Shown here one piece after another: positions 1-10,554 of a stretch of 29,461 nucleotides of DNA (the first letter of the stretch is position 1; every line of letters begins with the position of its first letter). The stretch is from the NCBI GenBank assembly GCA_027021605.1, contig JALUUA010000251.1, forward strand, positions 1 through 29,461. Reading direction: 5' to 3'. The translations under genes and the position numbers were made by a program. The notes under the pieces are model-generated. The model was given only the letters and a program-made list of their open reading frames with translations. It was not told the origin of the DNA and did no database searches. This DNA comes from Candidatus Bipolaricaulota bacterium. Lineage in GTDB: Bacteria; Bipolaricaulota; Bipolaricaulia; RBG-16-55-9.

Positions 1-1730
1 ACTCGACCCCCCTTAGGTCCCAGTGCACCTTCCCGGTTGCACCGCCCCGCCACTTGTACGATGCGCTCCAGAGGCCCAATGGCCCGATAGACCACGGGGA
101 AGTCCAGATCGACGCCCGCCTCCACGACTTGAGTGCTGATGAGACGTACGGGCTTCCCGTCGTTTAGCCTTTGGTGGATCTCCTTCAGGATCTCCCGCCG
201 GTGGGCCGCGCAGAGGAGCGTCGAGAGGTGAAAGGCGCTCTCGTCCTCGCCCAGCTCGTTGAGCAGGGCCAGCGCGTCCTTGCGCGTGTTGAGCACCACC
301 ATTGCCTGGGGATGTTGCCGAAGCTCCTCGGCCAGCTCGGCCCAGGAGAGCGGCTCCCGGCGATACTCGTACCTCACCCGCCGCAACAAGCGGAAGTGCT
401 CGGGATATTGCGGCACGATCTCGCCGCGGAGCTTTTGGGTGTTGAAGACCCGCGCGAAGCGCTCCCCCTCGAAGGCGGGCTGGGTGGCGGTCGAGAGCAC
501 GACCGTGACGCCGTAATCCTCTACGAGGGCGTTGAGCACGTCGAGGGTGGGCTCGAGCACGTGGGGCGGCAGCGTCTGCACCTCGTCCAAGATGAGCACG
601 CTCCTCGCGATGTTGTGCAGCTTGCGACACTTCGAGGGCTTGTGGTGGAAGAGGCTCTCGAAGAGCTGGACGGTCGTCGTCACGATGAGAGGGGCCTCCC
701 AGTTCTCGCTGGCCAGGCGCAAACGGAGGGTTTCCTCGTCCTGACACTCGTCTTCTCTTTCGGGGAACTCGAAGGCGCTGTGATGCTCCAGCACGGCGTC
801 CTTCCCCAACACCTCGCGATAGACTTGAGCGGTCTGGTCGATGATGCTCGTGTAGGGAAGGGCCACGATCACCCGCCGCAGGCCGTGCGCATGGGCGTGC
901 TTGAGGGCGAAAGCCAGCCCGCTGAGGGTCTTGCCCCCGCCCGTGGGGACGGTCAGTCGAAAGATTCCCGGAGGCTTTTCTGCCGCTTTAAGACAAGCGT
1001 CGTAGACTTCCTCCCGCACCCGAAGCACGTGAGGGTCTGTCCTCTTCGTGCTTCCATGAGTTCGTTTTTTCAGGAAAGCGGCCCGTCCGGCCTCGAAGCG
1101 CTCCCAGAGTTCCTTGAGGGAGGGCCAGCGGCCCCTTAGTCGACTCTTGTCGGGCTCGAAGTGCGCTTCCGTATCGAGATGGTCGGCGTCCACGAGCGCC
1201 GAGAAGAGCATTCGGATGAACAGCTCGCGGCGGGTGATCTGCTCTCTTGCGGGATGTCGCTCCACTCGAAACGGGGGCAGGGCTGCCTGTTTCTTCTTGA
1301 GGAATTGTTGCATGAGCAAGAGGGATTCCCGCTCTTGGTCAAGGAAATCCTTTAAAGCGTTAAGAAGCTCGCCGACGTCGGGAAGCCCGACGTGGTGCCC
1401 ATAGATGGGCAGCGCGAGTTCTTTCCAGTCCTCGGGCTTTCGGGCACCGTGGACGATAAGATTGTAAATGAACGCAGCGCCCCACAGGGCGTGAGGGACC
1501 CGCCTATGGGGGCGTCCCTCGTGCTCAGCTTCCAGATACGCTTGGAACTCGGGGTTGCACTTCCCCAAATCGTGGAGCCAGCCGAGCCAAGCGGCTAAAG
1601 CCTCCGCCCCGAAGGGCCGAGCCCGCTCGGCGGCTTTTTGGGCGACAGCTTGGAGGTGTGCGGCGAGATCGTGCCACCGGCCCTCGCGATTGGGGGTGTG
1701 CGCTGCTGGTCCGTAGGGACGATCGCTCAT
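1..1730 (-). CDS. cas3: CRISPR-associated helicase/nuclease Cas3 (HD + SF2 helicase), type I-C-like; 3' end lies outside the window
   Basis: Manual translation from ATG at 1730 stays open to the window edge. It shows HD-domain motifs (AHTPN...HL, WLHDLGK, HALWGA, GHHVGL), RMLFSALVDADHLDTE, Walker A LTVPTGGGKT, ILDEVQ, STATQP, STQVVEAGVDLDF and QVAGRCNREG. It is probably absent from the ORF track because it has no stop in the window. Confidence 0.96.
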   Translation of the reverse strand, partial: MSDRPYGPAAHTPNREGRWHDLAAHLQAVAQKAAERARPFGAEALAAWLGWLHDLGKCNPEFQAYLEAEHEGRPHRRVPHALWGAAFIYNLIVHGARKPEDWKELALPIYGHHVGLPDVGELLNALKDFLDQERESLLLMQQFLKKKQAALPPFRVERHPAREQITRRELFIRMLFSALVDADHLDTEAHFEPDKSRLRGRWPSLKELWERFEAGRAAFLKKRTHGSTKRTDPHVLRVREEVYDACLKAAEKPPGIFRLTVPTGGGKTLSGLAFALKHAHAHGLRRVIVALPYTSIIDQTAQVYREVLGKDAVLEHHSAFEFPEREDECQDEETLRLRLASENWEAPLIVTTTVQLFESLFHHKPSKCRKLHNIARSVLILDEVQTLPPHVLEPTLDVLNALVEDYGVTVVLSTATQPAFEGERFARVFNTQKLRGEIVPQYPEHFRLLRRVRYEYRREPLSWAELAEELRQHPQAMVVLNTRKDALALLNELGEDESAFHLSTLLCAAHRREILKEIHQRLNDGKPVRLISTQVVEAGVDLDFPVVYRAIGPLERIVQVAGRCNREGALGPKGGR

Positions 1731-1783: not shown

Positions 1784-2350
1784 CTACGCGTTGAACTCGT
1801 TCATCACCGCCTCGATGTCCTGCTCCAGAAAGACCTCGATGGCTTGGGCGGCCCTGTCCAAAAAGGCGTCCAGCTCGCGCTCCTCTTCTTGAGTGAACGC
1901 CCCCAGCACGTAGTCCGTGAGGTCCTTAGGCAGGTCGGGACGCCCGATCCCCAGGCGCAGCCTCGGGATCTGCCGGGTGCCCAGCGCCTCGATCACGGAG
2001 GCCATCCCGTGGTGGCCCCCGTCGCCGCCCTGGGCCCGCGCCCGCAGCTTCCCAAACGGGAGCATCACGTCGTCGTAGACAATTAGAATCTCCTCGGGCG
2101 AAAGGCGATGGGTCCGGGCGATCTCCAAGACGGCCAGGCCGCTGCGGTTCATGTACGTCTGCGGCTTGGCCACCAAGAAGTCCCCGACGCGGTAAATCTG
2201 AGCCGTCCGGGAGGGCAACGCCTCCGGACGGCCGCGCCTCCGGCTTCGCGCGAGATAGCGGTCGACGGCGAGGAACCCGAGGTTGTGGCGGGTGCGCTCA
2301 TAGCGGGGGCCGGGGTTTCCCAAGCCCACGACCGCTTTGCGGACCCGCAT
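1784..2350 (-). CDS. pth: Peptidyl-tRNA hydrolase
   Basis: VVGLGNPG.RY..TRHNLGF, KPQTYMNRSG, VYDD, GGDGGHHG and RLRLGIGRP motifs; conserved prs-rplY-pth order. Confidence 0.97.
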   Translation of the reverse strand: MRVRKAVVGLGNPGPRYERTRHNLGFLAVDRYLARSRRRGRPEALPSRTAQIYRVGDFLVAKPQTYMNRSGLAVLEIARTHRLSPEEILIVYDDVMLPFGKLRARAQGGDGGHHGMASVIEALGTRQIPRLRLGIGRPDLPKDLTDYVLGAFTQEEERELDAFLDRAAQAIEVFLEQDIEAVMNEFNA

Positions 2351-2365: not shown

Positions 2366-3007
2366 TCATTCGGAGCCCGCTGCGGGGGCGGACTCGGATT
2401 CGCCCTCCGCTCCCCCCTCCGCGGCCGCGGGCGCGGCCTCCTCCTCGACGGCGGCGACCTCCTCCACCTTGCGCGGCGCCAGCACCGTCACCACCACCAA
2501 GTCGGGGGAGGTGTGCAGCTCCACGCCCTCGGGCAGCTGCAGATCCCCGGTGTGGATGGACTGCCCCACGTCCAGGTCCGTGAGGTCCACCTCGATGAGC
2601 TCGGGGATCGCCTCGATGGGGCCCCGCACCTCCACGGTCTCGAGGATCTGCTCCACCACGCCCCCGGCCTTGCGGCCCTTCGCCTCGCCGTGGATGTGGA
2701 TCGGGACCTCCATGGTCACGGGCCGGTCCGCGGGCGGCTGGTAGAAGTCCACGTGCAGGATCTCGTCCGTCAGCGGGTGGAACTGGATCTCCTTGATGAA
2801 GGTGTGGTACTCCTCGCCCGAGTCGAGCTTCAAGGTGATCCGCGAGCTGTGCGTGATCTTGGCGAACAGCCTCTCGAGCTCCTTGCGGTCGAGGCTGAGC
2901 AGCTCGTGAACCCCCGGGCCGTAGACCACCGCCGGGACCCGCCCGCTCCGGCGAAGGGCCCTCGGGTTCGTCCTCTCGCGCTTCTGTGCCTGCAGTTCGT
3001 AGGCCAT
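2366..3007 (-). CDS. rplY: 50S ribosomal protein L25/Ctc (long form)
   Basis: LRRSGRVPAVVYG, KEIQFHPL...ILHVDFY and C-terminal Ctc domain with acidic tail. Confidence 0.96.
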   Translation of the reverse strand: MAYELQAQKRERTNPRALRRSGRVPAVVYGPGVHELLSLDRKELERLFAKITHSSRITLKLDSGEEYHTFIKEIQFHPLTDEILHVDFYQPPADRPVTMEVPIHIHGEAKGRKAGGVVEQILETVEVRGPIEAIPELIEVDLTDLDVGQSIHTGDLQLPEGVELHTSPDLVVVTVLAPRKVEEVAAVEEEAAPAAAEGGAEGESESAPAAGSE

Positions 3008-4160: not shown

Positions 4161-5369
4161 TCACTCGTAGCGCAGCGCCTCCACGGGGGGCCGCAGCGCC
4201 GCGCGCCGGGCGGGCGGGAGCCCCGCGAGCGCGCTCAGCCCGACGGCCCCCAGCAGCGCGGCCGCGATGAGCCCCGCGCTCGCGCCGGGGGCGAGCGCGG
4301 CCCCCTCCACGAACCGGCTCACCACCGCGGAGAGGCTGAGCGCGATGCCGTATCCGAGCACCACCCCGGCGATCCCGCCCAGGAGCCCGAGCCCGCCCGC
4401 CTCCAGCACGAACAGGAGGAGGATCTGCCCCGGCCGCGCCCCCAAGGCGCTTAGGACCCCGATCTCGCGCGTTCGCTCCACCACCGCCGTGTACATCGTG
4501 TTGAGGAGCCCCAGGCCCCCCACGAGCAGCGCCACGGCGGCAATCGCCGTAAGCGTCGCGTTCAAGATGCGAAGCGCCGTGTGTACGACCTCGAAGATCC
4601 GCCGGGAGCTCTGCACGAGGGCCCCGGCCCCCGCGCCCGCCTCCCGAAGGGCTTGTTGGACGTCTTGCTCCAGCCGAACCACGTCGTAGCCGGGACGGGC
4701 CTTCACCCAGGCGAGCGTGATCCCCTCCCGCTCGCCCACCAGGGCCCACAGCGCCTCGAGGGGGAGGAAGAGCGCCCCCCGCTCGGGGGCGCCCCCGCCC
4801 CCCCAGCTCACGATCCCGGAGACGCGGAACGTCCGCCCGCGGATGCGGACGGCATCGCCCACGCCCACCCCGAGGTCGCGCGCCGCCTCGGCGCTGAGCA
4901 GCACCTCGGCGGGGCCGGGGGCCCGCCCCTCCACCCGCGAGACCCCGCCCCACAGGGGGCCTTCCCCCCCGGAGGGATCGGGATCGGGGTAGACGCCGAC
5001 GACCGGCAGGAAGCCCTGGGCGTCCGCGGCGGCCACGGGCAGGGCCTCGCGCAGCCAGGCGCCCACCCGCTCCGCGCCCTCCACCCGCTCGAGGAGGGCG
5101 GGGTTCAGCGGGAGCCGCCCCCGGCTGCCGGGGGCGGGGCCGGGTCCCGCGGCGGACGGCAAGACGAGCACGACGTCGTATCCCAGACGCTCCAACTGCT
5201 GGGTGAGGGCCCGCTGTGCCCCCAAGCTGAGGCTCCCCAGGGCGACGACGGCCGCCATCCCGACCGCCACCCCGAGGGCCGTAAGCCCCGAGCGCAGCGG
5301 CCGGCGCAGCGCGTTGCGCAGCGCCAAGCGCCCCAGCTCCCAGAGCTGCCGCAACGCAGGGCTATTCAC
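4161..5369 (-). CDS. ABC transporter permease, MacB/FtsX family
   Basis: LRNALRRPLRSGLTALGVAVG N-terminal TM, periplasmic domain, NTMYTAVVERTREIGVLSALGA and C-terminal ARRAALRPPVEALRYE. GTG start at 5369 overlaps the upstream stop. Confidence 0.9.
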   Translation of the reverse strand: MNSPALRQLWELGRLALRNALRRPLRSGLTALGVAVGMAAVVALGSLSLGAQRALTQQLERLGYDVVLVLPSAAGPGPAPGSRGRLPLNPALLERVEGAERVGAWLREALPVAAADAQGFLPVVGVYPDPDPSGGEGPLWGGVSRVEGRAPGPAEVLLSAEAARDLGVGVGDAVRIRGRTFRVSGIVSWGGGGAPERGALFLPLEALWALVGEREGITLAWVKARPGYDVVRLEQDVQQALREAGAGAGALVQSSRRIFEVVHTALRILNATLTAIAAVALLVGGLGLLNTMYTAVVERTREIGVLSALGARPGQILLLFVLEAGGLGLLGGIAGVVLGYGIALSLSAVVSRFVEGAALAPGASAGLIAAALLGAVGLSALAGLPPARRAALRPPVEALRYE

Positions 5370-6072
5370 GGCGCTCGAACTCGACGAGCTGCAGCCGGAA
5401 GACCTCCACAAAGCGCCGCCCCGGGGCGAGGGCCGTAAGCGCCAGCGAGGTGCACACGCTCAGCGTGTGGGGCCTCCCGCCCGAGGGTTTCTCCTCCTCG
5501 AGCTGCATCCACGGCGGGAACGGGACCGTGGGGTCTTCCGCAATGGCCAGAAACGTCCGGCGGTCGGGCTTCTCCGGGTCCGTCAGCAGCCCGCAGATCG
5601 CCGGGACGCCCCCGATCGTCTCCCGCGCGCCCGTCACGAAGCGGGCTCCCCCCGAGAGGAGGAAGACGGTGTGGGGCTCCAGGCTCTCGCGGTTTGCCAG
5701 CAGCGCCTGGATCGCCTCGTCCTGGAGGAGGAGCTGGGCCTGGGCGACGCCGTTGGCCACCCCCGTCTCCAGTTGGTCCCGCCGGGCGATCACCTCGTTC
5801 GTGGTGACCACCCGGAGACGGTCGTCGGAGTCGGAGGCGGAGGCGGGCTCCACCGTCCAGCCGAGGCGAATCGGGTCCTCCAGCCCCTCGGTGACGATCT
5901 CGTAGACCGCCCGCGTGTAGCCGCCCGGGTACTGCTGAAAGTAGTTGGGCGCCTGCGCGGCGACGAGCCCCCCCAGCCCCAGGGCTAGAATTCCCAGCCC
6001 CAGCCCTACGAACCCGGGATGCCGACACCTGCGCGCTCCTGCGCTCGGATCACGCTTTTGTTCGTGCACCAA
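5362..6072 (-). CDS. Exported hypothetical protein
   Basis: Signal-peptide-like N-terminus (GLGLGILALGLGGLVAA-QA), G-rich SD before TTG, and its stop overlaps the permease start. No family recognised. Confidence 0.75.
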   Translation of the reverse strand: MVHEQKRDPSAGARRCRHPGFVGLGLGILALGLGGLVAAQAPNYFQQYPGGYTRAVYEIVTEGLEDPIRLGWTVEPASASDSDDRLRVVTTNEVIARRDQLETGVANGVAQAQLLLQDEAIQALLANRESLEPHTVFLLSGGARFVTGARETIGGVPAICGLLTDPEKPDRRTFLAIAEDPTVPFPPWMQLEEEKPSGGRPHTLSVCTSLALTALAPGRRFVEVFRLQLVEFERRE

Positions 6073-6100
6073 CGGCGATTCCCCCCTTAGGCAAGCAGTA

Positions 6101-6116
6101 TGTAATCGCGATCACA
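6101..6116. promoter_or_regulatory. CRP/FNR-family-like palindromic site TGTAA-TCGCGA-TCACA
   Basis: One mismatch to the CRP consensus TGTGA-N6-TCACA; 14 of 16 positions are self-complementary. Confidence 0.6.
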
Positions 6117-6150
6117 GACGTACGCCGCAAGGGGCGATTATAATGACCTT

Positions 6151-6227
6151 GTCCCTCTACTCTAACTTCCTCTCACCACCGCAAGTGGAGGACGCAGCCC
6201 CTGCTCCCCGCAGGGGCTGGCTTTTTT
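6151..6227 (+). ncRNA. Candidate small RNA (about 77 nt)
   Basis: Perfect TATAAT at 6139-6144, purine +1 at 6151, pyrimidine-rich 5' segment, and a + strand intrinsic terminator ending at 6227. No ORF starts inside it. Confidence 0.45.
6195..6227 (+). terminator. Intrinsic terminator with + strand polarity
   Basis: 10-bp stem CAGCCCCTGC/GCAGGGGCTG with a 5-nt loop, followed by GC and T6 (6222-6227). Confidence 0.7.
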
Positions 6228-6229
6228 GG

Positions 6230-7114
6230 CTAGCGCTGAGAGGCCCGATACTTCTCCTCCAGGAAGCGGTAGACCTCGGCGTCGATGGCGCTCGGGTCCT
6301 CCAGGCGGCGCATCTCGAGGTTCTCCACGTTGTGGAAGTCCTCCAGGGCTTTTTGGGTGGTCTCGTCCAGCTCGCCCGTGATCCCGCCCGAATAGTACCC
6401 GAGGGCCTGGAGCATGGTTTGAATCTGCCGAACCCGTTCGGGGGTAAGCTCCCAGATCTCGGTGGGTTTGCCGAAGTAAAGCCGCTGGAGCCGGAGGAGC
6501 CGCGCCAGCTCCTCGATGGGCTGCGGGTGGTCGTCCACCCGCAGGTCCACGAGGCGGTCCGTAAAGCCCCCGTAGCCGCCCTTCTCCTTGACGACCAAGA
6601 GGGCCGCCGACTGCTGGCCGCGGCGGTCTCCCCCGGCGGCCTGGCCCGCCCTCAGGGCCTCGATGAGCCGATCCGCGAGCGGCCCCTTTGTCGTCTCGAA
6701 CGCCTCGGCCATCGCCTCGACCACCCGTTGGGAGGCGAGGATGTTCCCCTGGCAGGCGTACCCCTCCCCCACGAGGTGGCCGGCCCACTCGTAGCACGCC
6801 TTCCCCGTGAACGCCGCAGCCCGCCCTTGGGCATCCACCACGCCGAGCTGGCGGTGCTCCCGCTCCTCGTCCTCCTCGGTGAGCTTCTTTACGACCTCCT
6901 CGGCACTCAGCCCCGCGCGCAGGAGCTCGAGCCCCCGGGGGCCGTAGCTCGTGTTGGCATAGGCTTGCGTGGCAATGGCCCCGACGTTCGCCGCCGCCCA
7001 GGGCACCACGGGGCCCACGGCCAAGAACTTCGACTCCACGGCCACCCCCCACTCGCCCGCCTCTCGATCGCAGGCCACGATGGAAAACGTGCTCGGATAA
7101 ATCGTCGCGTCCAT
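6230..7114 (-). CDS. DUF1028-family Ntn-hydrolase-like protein with C-terminal peptidoglycan-binding-like domain
   Basis: TFSIVA.D...GEWGVAV.SKFLAVG..VPWA, AIATQA, RQLGVVD, GGDRRG.QSAAL, DLRVDDHPQPIEEL and LQALGYYSGGITGELD. Second ATG (7114) chosen for SD spacing. Confidence 0.88.
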   Translation of the reverse strand: MDATIYPSTFSIVACDREAGEWGVAVESKFLAVGPVVPWAAANVGAIATQAYANTSYGPRGLELLRAGLSAEEVVKKLTEEDEEREHRQLGVVDAQGRAAAFTGKACYEWAGHLVGEGYACQGNILASQRVVEAMAEAFETTKGPLADRLIEALRAGQAAGGDRRGQQSAALLVVKEKGGYGGFTDRLVDLRVDDHPQPIEELARLLRLQRLYFGKPTEIWELTPERVRQIQTMLQALGYYSGGITGELDETTQKALEDFHNVENLEMRRLEDPSAIDAEVYRFLEEKYRASQR

Positions 7115-7125
7115 CCGCATCCCTC

Positions 7126-9473: not shown

Positions 9474-10554
9474 GGCGACCGCGCGCCTTGACGGGCCTTC
9501 CGCCCTCGGGCTGTCCGCCGTCTGGGGGGGCCGTCGGGGTCGGTGTGCTTTCCTTGCCGGGCTCCTCCGGGAGGAGGCCCGCCCGTACCCGGATCTCCCG
9601 CTCGATCTCTTGGGCAAGAGAGGGGTTTTCGGCGAGGAACGAGGCGGCGTTGGCGATCCCCTGGCCCAGCTGGGTCTCCCCGTAGGAGTACCAAGCGCCG
9701 CTCTTCTTGACGACGCCGAGCTGCTCGCCCAGCTTTAGGAGCTCGCGCTCCCGGGCGATCCCCACCCCGTAGAGGATGTCGAAGCGGGCTTCCTTAAAGG
9801 GCGGGGCGAGCTTGTTCTTCACCACTCGCACGAGCGTTTCGTTCCCGACCTTCCGGCCGCCGTCCTCGATGGCGCCTAGGCGCTTCACCTCCAGGCGCAC
9901 GGAGGTGTAGAACTTGAGCGCCAGGCCCCCGGTGGTCGTCGTGGAGGGCCCCCAGGGCCCCGACTGGATGAGCGATCGTATCTGGTTGATGAACACCACG
10001 AGGCAGTTCGACTGGTGAATCGCCCCGGAGAGCTTGCGCATCGCCTGGCTCATGAGGCGGGCTTGGAGGCCGACTTGGGTATCGCCCATGGCGCCCGCGA
10101 TCTCCGCCTCGGGCACCAGCGCGGCCACGGAGTCGATGACGATTACGTCCACGGCGCCGCTCCTTACGAGATGTTCCGTGATCTCGAGCGCCTGCTCCCC
10201 GGAGTTGGGCTGGCTGAGCAGCAAGTGGTCGAGGTCGACGCCGATGGCCTTCGCGTACTGGGGGTCGAGCGCGTGCTCCGCGTCGATGAAGGCGGCGATC
10301 CCCCCCCGCTTCTGGACCTCGGCGATCAGGTGGAGCCCCAGGGTCGTCTTCCCCGAGGCTTCGGGGCCGAAGATCTCGGCGATGCGCCCCCGGGGCATCC
10401 CCCCGATCCCCAGGGCGATGTCCAGCGCCAGCGACCCGCTGGGGATCGTCTCCACGCTGAGGTGGGGCGACTGCCCCAGCCACATGATCGACCCTTCCCC
10501 GTAGCGCTTCTTGATCTGGTCGAGCACCGAGTCGAGCACTTCCCGCTTCCCCAT
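9466..10554 (-). CDS. recA: Recombinase RecA
   Basis: [65 protein letters not shown] and KNKLAPPFK motifs. Confidence 0.98.

Follow-up and report, generated by a model that had tools for sequence, protein, structure and literature searches.

The intergenic gap at positions 6073-6229 of a 29,461-nucleotide (nt) stretch of DNA from a Candidatus Bipolaricaulota bacterium (contig JALUUA010000251.1; the whole stretch is referred to as the window) is flanked by two minus-strand genes and holds a plus-strand cassette that we consider likely to be a self-contained gene. On this reading, positions 6098-6227 would specify a trans-acting small RNA (sRNA) of ~77 nt, here called sRNA-1, whose promoter is activated in class II fashion by a CRP-type regulator and whose seed blocks Shine-Dalgarno (SD) sequences. 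The reading is carried above all by joint conservation: the putative activator box, its spacing to the -10 hexamer, the predicted RNA start, the seed and the terminator are kept together in ~28 genomes and 13 metagenome contigs. What is observed directly, and reported below, is the features of the sequence together with their conservation, covariation and complementarity. A sequence-only reading of the same stretch had proposed a regulator box, a TATAAT, a C/U-rich RNA, a hairpin and a run of six T on the plus strand between minus-strand genes, and all of these elements are present in the positions proposed. The parts of the cassette are as follows.

6098..6119, plus strand: putative CRP-type activator site, 22 bp; core TGTAATC-gc-GATCACA at 6101-6116, centre 6108.5, about -41.5/-42.5 from the predicted start
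6115..6120, plus strand: weak -35 element CAGACG with an 18-nt spacer; 3 of 6 positions match TTGACA, and its GAC core overlaps the 3' half of the box
6139..6144, plus strand: -10 hexamer TATAAT, read directly from the sequence
6150..6227, plus strand: predicted sRNA-1 transcript, ~77-78 nt; predicted +1 at G6151 or T6150
6151..6160, plus strand: first C/U-rich motif, GUCCCUCUAC; single-stranded in most orthologs (minimum free energy folds) and nearly invariant in alignment A1
6169..6180, plus strand: invariant anti-SD-like seed, CCUCUCACCACC; columns C20-C30 are invariant in A1
6176..6188, plus strand: small hairpin; CCAC 6176-6179, loop CGCAA, GUGG 6185-6188
6195..6227, plus strand: intrinsic terminator; 10-bp stem 6195-6204/6210-6219, loop 6205-6209, GC, U6 6222-6227

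The window belongs to a metagenome-assembled genome (MAG; G000 in the coordinates given below) of 2.17 Mb in 373 contigs, 85% complete, and the DNA runs that contain it are hydrothermal-vent metagenomes. In this DNA of 67% G+C the hexamer TATAAT occurs three times in the window, where 0.37 occurrences are expected, and the box, which reads TGTAATCGCGATCACA at 6101-6116, is the window's sole match to TGTRA-N6-TYACA, a pattern that 100 shuffles failed to produce even once. For the 78-nt RNA the predicted folding energy is -32.6 kcal/mol (z = -4.2 relative to shuffles). A single terminator-like hairpin is not above chance (3 such sites were found in 5 kb and 2.0 are expected); the cassette goes beyond chance because it is kept as a whole unit in other genomes.

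Conservation of sRNA-1

In blastn comparisons with relatives, several families share a core of 35-52 nt that is 90-100% identical, a similarity that reaches well past that of the flanking coding sequences. The layout is the same everywhere: the box, ~22 nt of free sequence, the -10 hexamer, the same RNA 5' half, and a terminator of differing but still pairing sequence. Model R1, a covariance model trained on 17 copies, matches the window at 6150-6226 with 88 bits. Of 151 sampled Bipolaricaulota genomes, 28 contain the RNA gene according to R1, always as a single copy, and these represent six families, mostly of one order (8 of 8 genomes in family f1, 12 of 16 in f5, 2 of 4 in f3, 1 of 1 in f2, 3 of 3 in f4 and 1 of 1 in f7, with G000 counted besides). 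No sRNA-1 was found by R1 in 117 genomes of the five families f6 and f8-f11. Weak R1 matches in G012, G020, G032 and G019 lack the box and the seed and were rejected as orthologs. An exact two-motif pattern identifies 16 stretches among ~185,000 species genomes, 14 of them the cassette, in MAGs labelled Bipolaricaulota, Acetothermia, Fraserbacteria or 'uncultured Thermotogae'; the same pattern is present in 14 metagenome contigs, and in 13 of these it marks the cassette.

Conservation begins exactly at the predicted RNA start (6150/6151), and the 5' half is the most conserved part of sRNA-1. Among the 28 sequences, compensatory changes are found in 9 of the 11 pairs of the terminator helix, and 97% of the helix cells are paired compared with 45-68% when the partner is slid, values that none of 500 shuffles reaches. 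The small hairpin at 6176-6188, which reads ACCACC...GGUGGU in other families, is kept but shows no compensatory changes, and in families f2-f4 an A-run stands 5' of the terminator stem.

Two checks that had been suggested for the suspected sRNA, a search of Rfam and a covariance model built from relatives, are both informative: the model finds the 28 genomes described above, and no Rfam family is recognised. Over the whole window Rfam 15 gives no match at the gathering threshold, the best sub-threshold sRNA matches being CcsR1 (13.8 vs 65.3 bits) and Betaproteobacteria_toxic_sRNA (12.5 vs 50 bits). A literature search on small RNAs of Bipolaricaulota found no paper.

We also note a local variant of the region. 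In one DNA run (X1) a metagenome contig joins window positions 6139-6360 to a promoter variant resembling that of G003, and the same contig is without 3 nt at 6163 and without 2 nt at 6167 of sRNA-1; two related populations seem to co-occur in the X1 sample.

Promoter, candidate activators and a second RNA

The promoter alignment (A2) shows no variation at GT and AC, one in each half-site, or at the A of the -10 hexamer. In 25 of 26 orthologous promoters the offset of GT-N10-AC is unchanged, and a -10 of the form TANNNT (TATAAT, TATACT, TAGAAT or TATAGT) follows at a fixed 36-37 nt from the box G across a spacer whose sequence is free; in most orthologs ACAGAC comes directly after the box. Promoters activated in class II fashion carry their site at ~-41.5, overlapping a weak -35 and followed by a good -10, and this is the layout predicted for the sRNA-1 promoter, where the box centre at 6108.5 lies 42.5 nt from G6151 and 41.5 nt from T6150. 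The start itself is predicted, from the onset of conservation 7 nt past the -10.

The E. coli CRP consensus core is TGTGATC-N2-GATCACA, that of FNR sites is TTGAT-N4-ATCAA, and that of NtcA-type sites is GTA-N8-TAC. The box core agrees with the first at 13 of 14 positions, the consensus being established knowledge, and none of the ortholog boxes resembles an FNR site. On these letters we class the box as a putative site of the CRP type, not of the FNR type. The class II CRP/FNR-family site that had been claimed for this position thus holds up in a narrower form, as a predicted CRP-type site, and both the box and its spacing to the -10 are conserved in the orthologous intergenic regions.

A companion claim fared differently. 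The sequence ATTATAAT also reads TATAAT leftwards (6137-6142, minus strand), and together with the box it had been proposed to repress the exported-protein/permease unit on that side. This arrangement is not conserved: the ATTATAAT palindrome is confined to G000 and G001, which belong to one genus; the rest of the family has CTATAAT or GTATAAT, and the divergent gene is a different one in f5. A conserved repressing function of the box is thus unsupported.

The identity of the protein at the box leaves room for a rival explanation, which we regard as unlikely without being negligible: the regulator that binds the box may be of another type than CRP (NtcA-like, of another CRP/FNR subfamily, or an unrelated dimer), or it may act as a repressor site. 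Several to many of the ortholog boxes read GTA-N8-TAC, the NtcA-type core, and the genome encodes nine CRP/FNR paralogs with varied recognition helices (four have an R-E pair in the recognition helix, and the regulator encoded on contig C271 has S-K-T-A-I-R), none of which is assignable to the box. The predicted position near -41.5, the poor -35 and the perfect -10 speak instead for an activated class II layout, and the 7-2-7 palindrome fits the CRP consensus better than that of FNR, both judged from general knowledge. The genome also has three class III cyclase domains; nine CRP/FNR regulators and three cyclase domains in 2.17 Mb represent a high density of cyclic-nucleotide signalling. As a candidate activator the C271 regulator is present phylum-wide (143 of 151 genomes), and its presence does not track the sRNAs.

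Two further CRP-type boxes, GGTGACGAAGATCACA and GGTTACCCGGATCACA, lie in a divergent region at G000:C367:3150-3440, between a CRP-family gene (recognition helix T-R-E-N-V-T) and the gene of a protein that consists only of a cyclic-nucleotide (cNMP)-binding domain, an arrangement that suggests autoregulation. A position weight matrix (PWM) scan of the genome adds few sites that have a correctly spaced -10, and the genes behind them give no clue to the signal. Two such sites, each with TAGAAT at 36-37 nt from the box, are possible further members of the regulon: one at G000:C291 ~1930-2004 (minus strand), before the gene of a 466-amino-acid (aa) coiled-coil exported protein, and one at G000:C142 ~9710-9755 (minus strand), before that of a 322-aa membrane protein without a Pfam family.

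A genome-wide scan for the box had also been suggested, and it was productive. TGTRA-N6-TYACA has only three matches in the whole 2.17-Mb genome, the window box among them, and the PWM scan detects the same arrangement, a box followed by TATATT, on contig C158, where it precedes a second RNA.

G000:C158 ~5034-5124, gene to ~5184, minus strand: sRNA-2, ~90 nt; box and -10 spacing as in sRNA-1

The 5' end of sRNA-2 carries AUCACCUCCUU, an exact match over 11 nt to the 16S rRNA 3' tail (the anti-SD) of the same genome, and these 11 nt are invariant in 17 orthologs. The RNA also has a single-stranded CCCUCUCACCUCC, a terminator, and a hairpin with three covarying pairs. It is encoded between a gene of the CCA-adding/poly(A) polymerase family and a convergent cytochrome c assembly gene, and its box, spacing and RNA are conserved in f1 and f5. 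Outside the order nothing was found at E <= 1e-6, and the sRNA-2 locus matches no Rfam family. Because the box is common to both RNAs, they form a small regulon of two sRNAs, each carrying the CCUCUCACC motif.

Several observations concern sRNA-2 and its motif. At G007:C25 and G002:C44 the hairpin loop of sRNA-2 has an insertion of ~80-100 nt, with both arms and both C/U motifs kept. The sequence GGAGGUGAGAGGG at G000:C331:436-460 (plus strand) is perfectly complementary to the sRNA-2 motif over 13 nt; the AUG that follows 4 nt later starts the gene of a small exported protein (178 aa) without a Pfam family. A long hairpin, GGGGCCGGGUCU...AGACCCGGCCCC, occurs in two identical copies, at G000:C103 ~2640-2710 (minus strand) and G000:C118 ~2510-2590 (plus strand); they carry GGUGGUGAGAGGGAG in the loop, stand directly past a gene's stop codon and have no Rfam match. 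These hairpins could be a decoy or sponge for sRNAs, or one region that was assembled twice.

Candidate targets and mode of action

The complement of the sRNA-1 seed, the 12-mer GGTGGTGAGAGG, has only five occurrences elsewhere in the genome, at four distinct sites. In one of them the seed is the perfect complement of GGUGGUGAGAGG, which adjoins the AUG of the CRP-family gene G000:C271:5887-6558 (minus strand). This gene has a sigma-70-like promoter (TTGACA-17-CATAAT) and an 80-nt leader (locus 5887-6640, minus strand), and its product, whose recognition helix was given above, is 72-98% identical across the order. In ~26 of 30 orthologs from the order, the 13 nt ahead of the C271 AUG are GGUGGUGAGAGGG or a close variant of it, the rest of the leader being free to vary; G036, which belongs to f7, the single outside family with sRNA-1, keeps the motif as well. 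In all 18 of the 18 C271 orthologs sampled from families without the sRNA, other sequences occupy this position. When each genome's own sRNA-1 is paired with its own C271 start region the duplex has a mean energy of -31 kcal/mol (z from -1.6 to -6.0), compared with a mean of -19 for the sRNA-1 of G000 and start regions from genomes without the sRNA. Some lineages extend the pairing in their own way, f5 by CCAUCC-GGAUGG across the AUG and f1 by CCGC-GCGG.

A second seed-complement site, reading AUGGUGGUGAGAGGGAC, lies over the start of ftsA (G000:C97:547; 530-600, plus strand). The ftsA motif is also found at or just before the start in G002, G005, G009, G011 and G036, all of which have sRNA-1; the ftsA starts of f8-f11 have only its GGYGGUGA part, an ordinary SD. 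The shorter GGTGAGAGG has ~20 sites in the genome, near the chance expectation, of which 3-5 are at gene starts. The sequence-only reading had supposed that the C/U-rich part of the RNA serves as an anti-SD seed, and a specific and conserved candidate in an SD region does exist: by complementarity, the mRNA of the C271 regulator is the best-supported candidate target and that of ftsA the second.

From these observations we infer transcription, CRP-type activation and repression of the named targets, in the following sequence. A dimer of the CRP type would bind the 22-bp site near -41.5/-42.5 and, as a class II activator, would activate a promoter with a perfect -10 and a poor -35. Transcription would begin at about G6151 and stop at the intrinsic terminator (6195-6227), giving an RNA predicted to consist of a single-stranded C/U-rich 5' half, the small hairpin and the terminator. 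The seed CCUCUCACCACC would then pair with GGUGGUGAGAGG(G) at the SD/start-codon region, and binding of the 30S subunit would be blocked. The pairing is probably Hfq-free: Hfq (PF17209) was not found in G000 or in five relatives that are 90-99% complete, in a search that matched in 5 of 14 control genomes, E. coli and B. subtilis among them. Its apparent lack fits a long, G+C-rich pairing that requires no chaperone but proves nothing.

Several points weigh against this account. A genome scan by RNAduplex with the 33-nt 5' region is not selective, and in this purine-rich genome of high G+C content many sites, long G/A-rich stretches, out-score the target. The target motif contains a genuine SD (its GGUGA pairs with UCACC of 16S rRNA), and part of its conservation could reflect translation rather than pairing with the sRNA. 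Most predicted folds place the 3' part of the seed (ACCACC) within the small-hairpin stem. One genome, G012, is 96% complete and keeps the start motif; no convincing sRNA-1 was found in it, and sRNA-2 is present. Because the genomes are kin, finding sRNA and motif together counts as no more than one or two events in evolution. On the side of the activator, no CRP-family gene was found within 1.5 kb of either sRNA at any locus, and the C367 paralog was rejected as a general activator, its true orthologs being confined to family f1. Finally, three metatranscriptomes from related studies contained no contig of this organism, which is no evidence against transcription.

A further explanation is that the RNA is real but acts mainly as a global competitor or decoy, either by bulk SD binding or by occupying a protein that binds C/U-rich or anti-SD sequences, so that translation is re-tuned overall. 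The invariant 16S tail copy at the 5' end of sRNA-2 and the very many G/A-rich partners in the duplex scans would be expected from such an RNA, and the failure to find Hfq in six genomes leaves room for another protein partner. However, the seed of sRNA-1 differs from the 16S anti-SD (UCACCACC vs UCACCUCC), and it is this difference that provides the exact complement to the regulator and ftsA sites; the extended motif is also rare, as the counts for GGTGAGAGG indicate. We therefore think a global competitor improbable.

Beyond the proposed SD-blocking sRNA, a wider scheme can be drawn, which we put forward tentatively and which may well prove wrong. It would be an order-specific module in which a cyclic-nucleotide signal acts through the two sibling sRNAs to switch off translation of the C271 regulator and ftsA by way of the co-evolved GGUGGUGAGAGGG motif, forming a brake on growth and division and possibly a feedback loop. 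If true, the phylum, which to our knowledge has no cultured member (Bipolaricaulota; also OP1, Acetothermia), would have an RNA-based growth and division brake.

The gene and its neighbours, and known counterparts

The genes around the cassette in the window are listed here for context.

6230..7120, minus strand: convergent gene, DUF1028 plus PG_binding; stop codon at 6230-6232
5362..6072, minus strand: divergent gene for an exported or membrane-anchored protein of 236 aa; no Pfam family, signal-anchor-like N-terminus
4161-5411: MacB/FtsX-type permease gene, the next after the divergent gene at 5362-6072

In 25 of 26 genomes the gene downstream of sRNA-1 is convergent and ends within a few nt of the terminator, and sRNA-1 is therefore not a leader. 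The identity of the neighbours changes: in family f1 alone the convergent gene is DUF1028, its place in f5 being taken by another gene, and the divergent 236-aa exported protein is kept only within f1 and is absent at the f5 locus. Since the form of the cassette is kept where the neighbourhood differs, the unit is autonomous. By its sequence, sRNA-1 is an independent transcription unit with its own predicted promoter and terminator. The unannotated, stand-alone sRNA gene of the sequence-only reading is accordingly borne out by the conservation of the cassette, its covarying stem, the changed neighbourhood in f5 and the lack of a conserved open reading frame (ORF).

The close apposition of the convergent gene does raise the question of a role in cis, in which the RNA is antisense to that gene (DUF1028 here) by read-through, or the hairpin is merely a terminator shared in both directions. 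The DUF1028 stop codon lies 3 nt past the T-run of sRNA-1; the terminator hairpin read on the minus strand of G000 has no U-run after its stem, so that read-through is plausible, and in f2-f4 the A-run that precedes the stem on its 5' side would let the terminator act in both directions. Yet the RNA 5' half is the most conserved part although the convergent gene is not the same in f1 and f5, and a mere terminator needs no conserved promoter, box or seed. We judge a role in cis quite improbable.

The least likely explanations are soon weighed. That there is no gene, only a chance promoter-like sequence beside a neighbour's terminator, gains something from the frequency of terminator-like hairpins here (no rarer than chance), but with the full cassette in six families and 13 metagenome contigs, a covarying terminator, a fixed spacing from box to TATAAT and a form kept in other surroundings, it is very hard to credit. 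That the locus encodes a small protein, as a GTG-started frame from 6186 that crosses the terminator might hint, is next to impossible to maintain: no conserved ORF was detected in the orthologs, the conserved 5' half has no start codon, and the only reading frames cross the variable terminator and give peptides unrelated between families.

Taken together, sRNA-1 is a new and well-defined RNA family, with 28 members from genomes and 13 from metagenomes under model R1, and its functional kind is probably a known one, the anti-SD sRNA put under the control of a CRP-family activator. The family has a well-marked promoter motif and a sibling RNA, and the targets predicted for it are concrete; it also gives an uncommon chance to watch an sRNA and its target site arise together on a phylogeny. 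The predictions are testable in E. coli with reporters and purified proteins, so that culture of the organism is unneeded.

Among characterised systems, sRNA-1 resembles enterobacterial CyaR in its predicted plan, in that both are short stand-alone genes with a CRP site, a C/U-rich anti-SD seed and an intrinsic terminator. There is no sequence or Rfam relationship between them, however; the phylum is another, no Hfq was found here, and the seed and candidate targets differ. FnrS, activated by FNR, and NsiR4, activated by NtcA in cyanobacteria, share with sRNA-1 a site (predicted here) for a CRP/FNR-family protein near -41.5, and the NtcA sites of NsiR4 (GTA-N8-TAC) have their like in many of the sRNA-1 ortholog boxes. 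By contrast, the box described here is a CRP-type 7-2-7 palindrome and not TTGAT-N4-ATCAA, and there is no homology to either RNA. The design represented by CyaR, FnrS and NsiR4, in which a CRP-family site at -41.5 drives an anti-SD sRNA, would thus exist in a deep and unrelated lineage.

In their candidate targets the two RNAs recall OmrA/OmrB with OmpR and Qrr with HapR/LuxR, loops in which a transcription factor has its mRNA repressed by an sRNA: here too a transcription-factor mRNA supplies the best candidate target, at its start region, and two siblings share one promoter motif, although a feedback loop is only one possible wiring in the present case. In their mode of pairing, RoxS/RsaE, 6C RNA and CcsR1-4 are close parallels, since their C-rich motifs pair with SD regions in Hfq-independent or high-G+C settings, as those of sRNA-1 would. 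Unlike in these RNAs, the C/U motifs of sRNA-1 lie in a single-stranded 5' stretch and not in hairpin loops, and its score against the CcsR1 model, given above, shows that it is not a member of that family.

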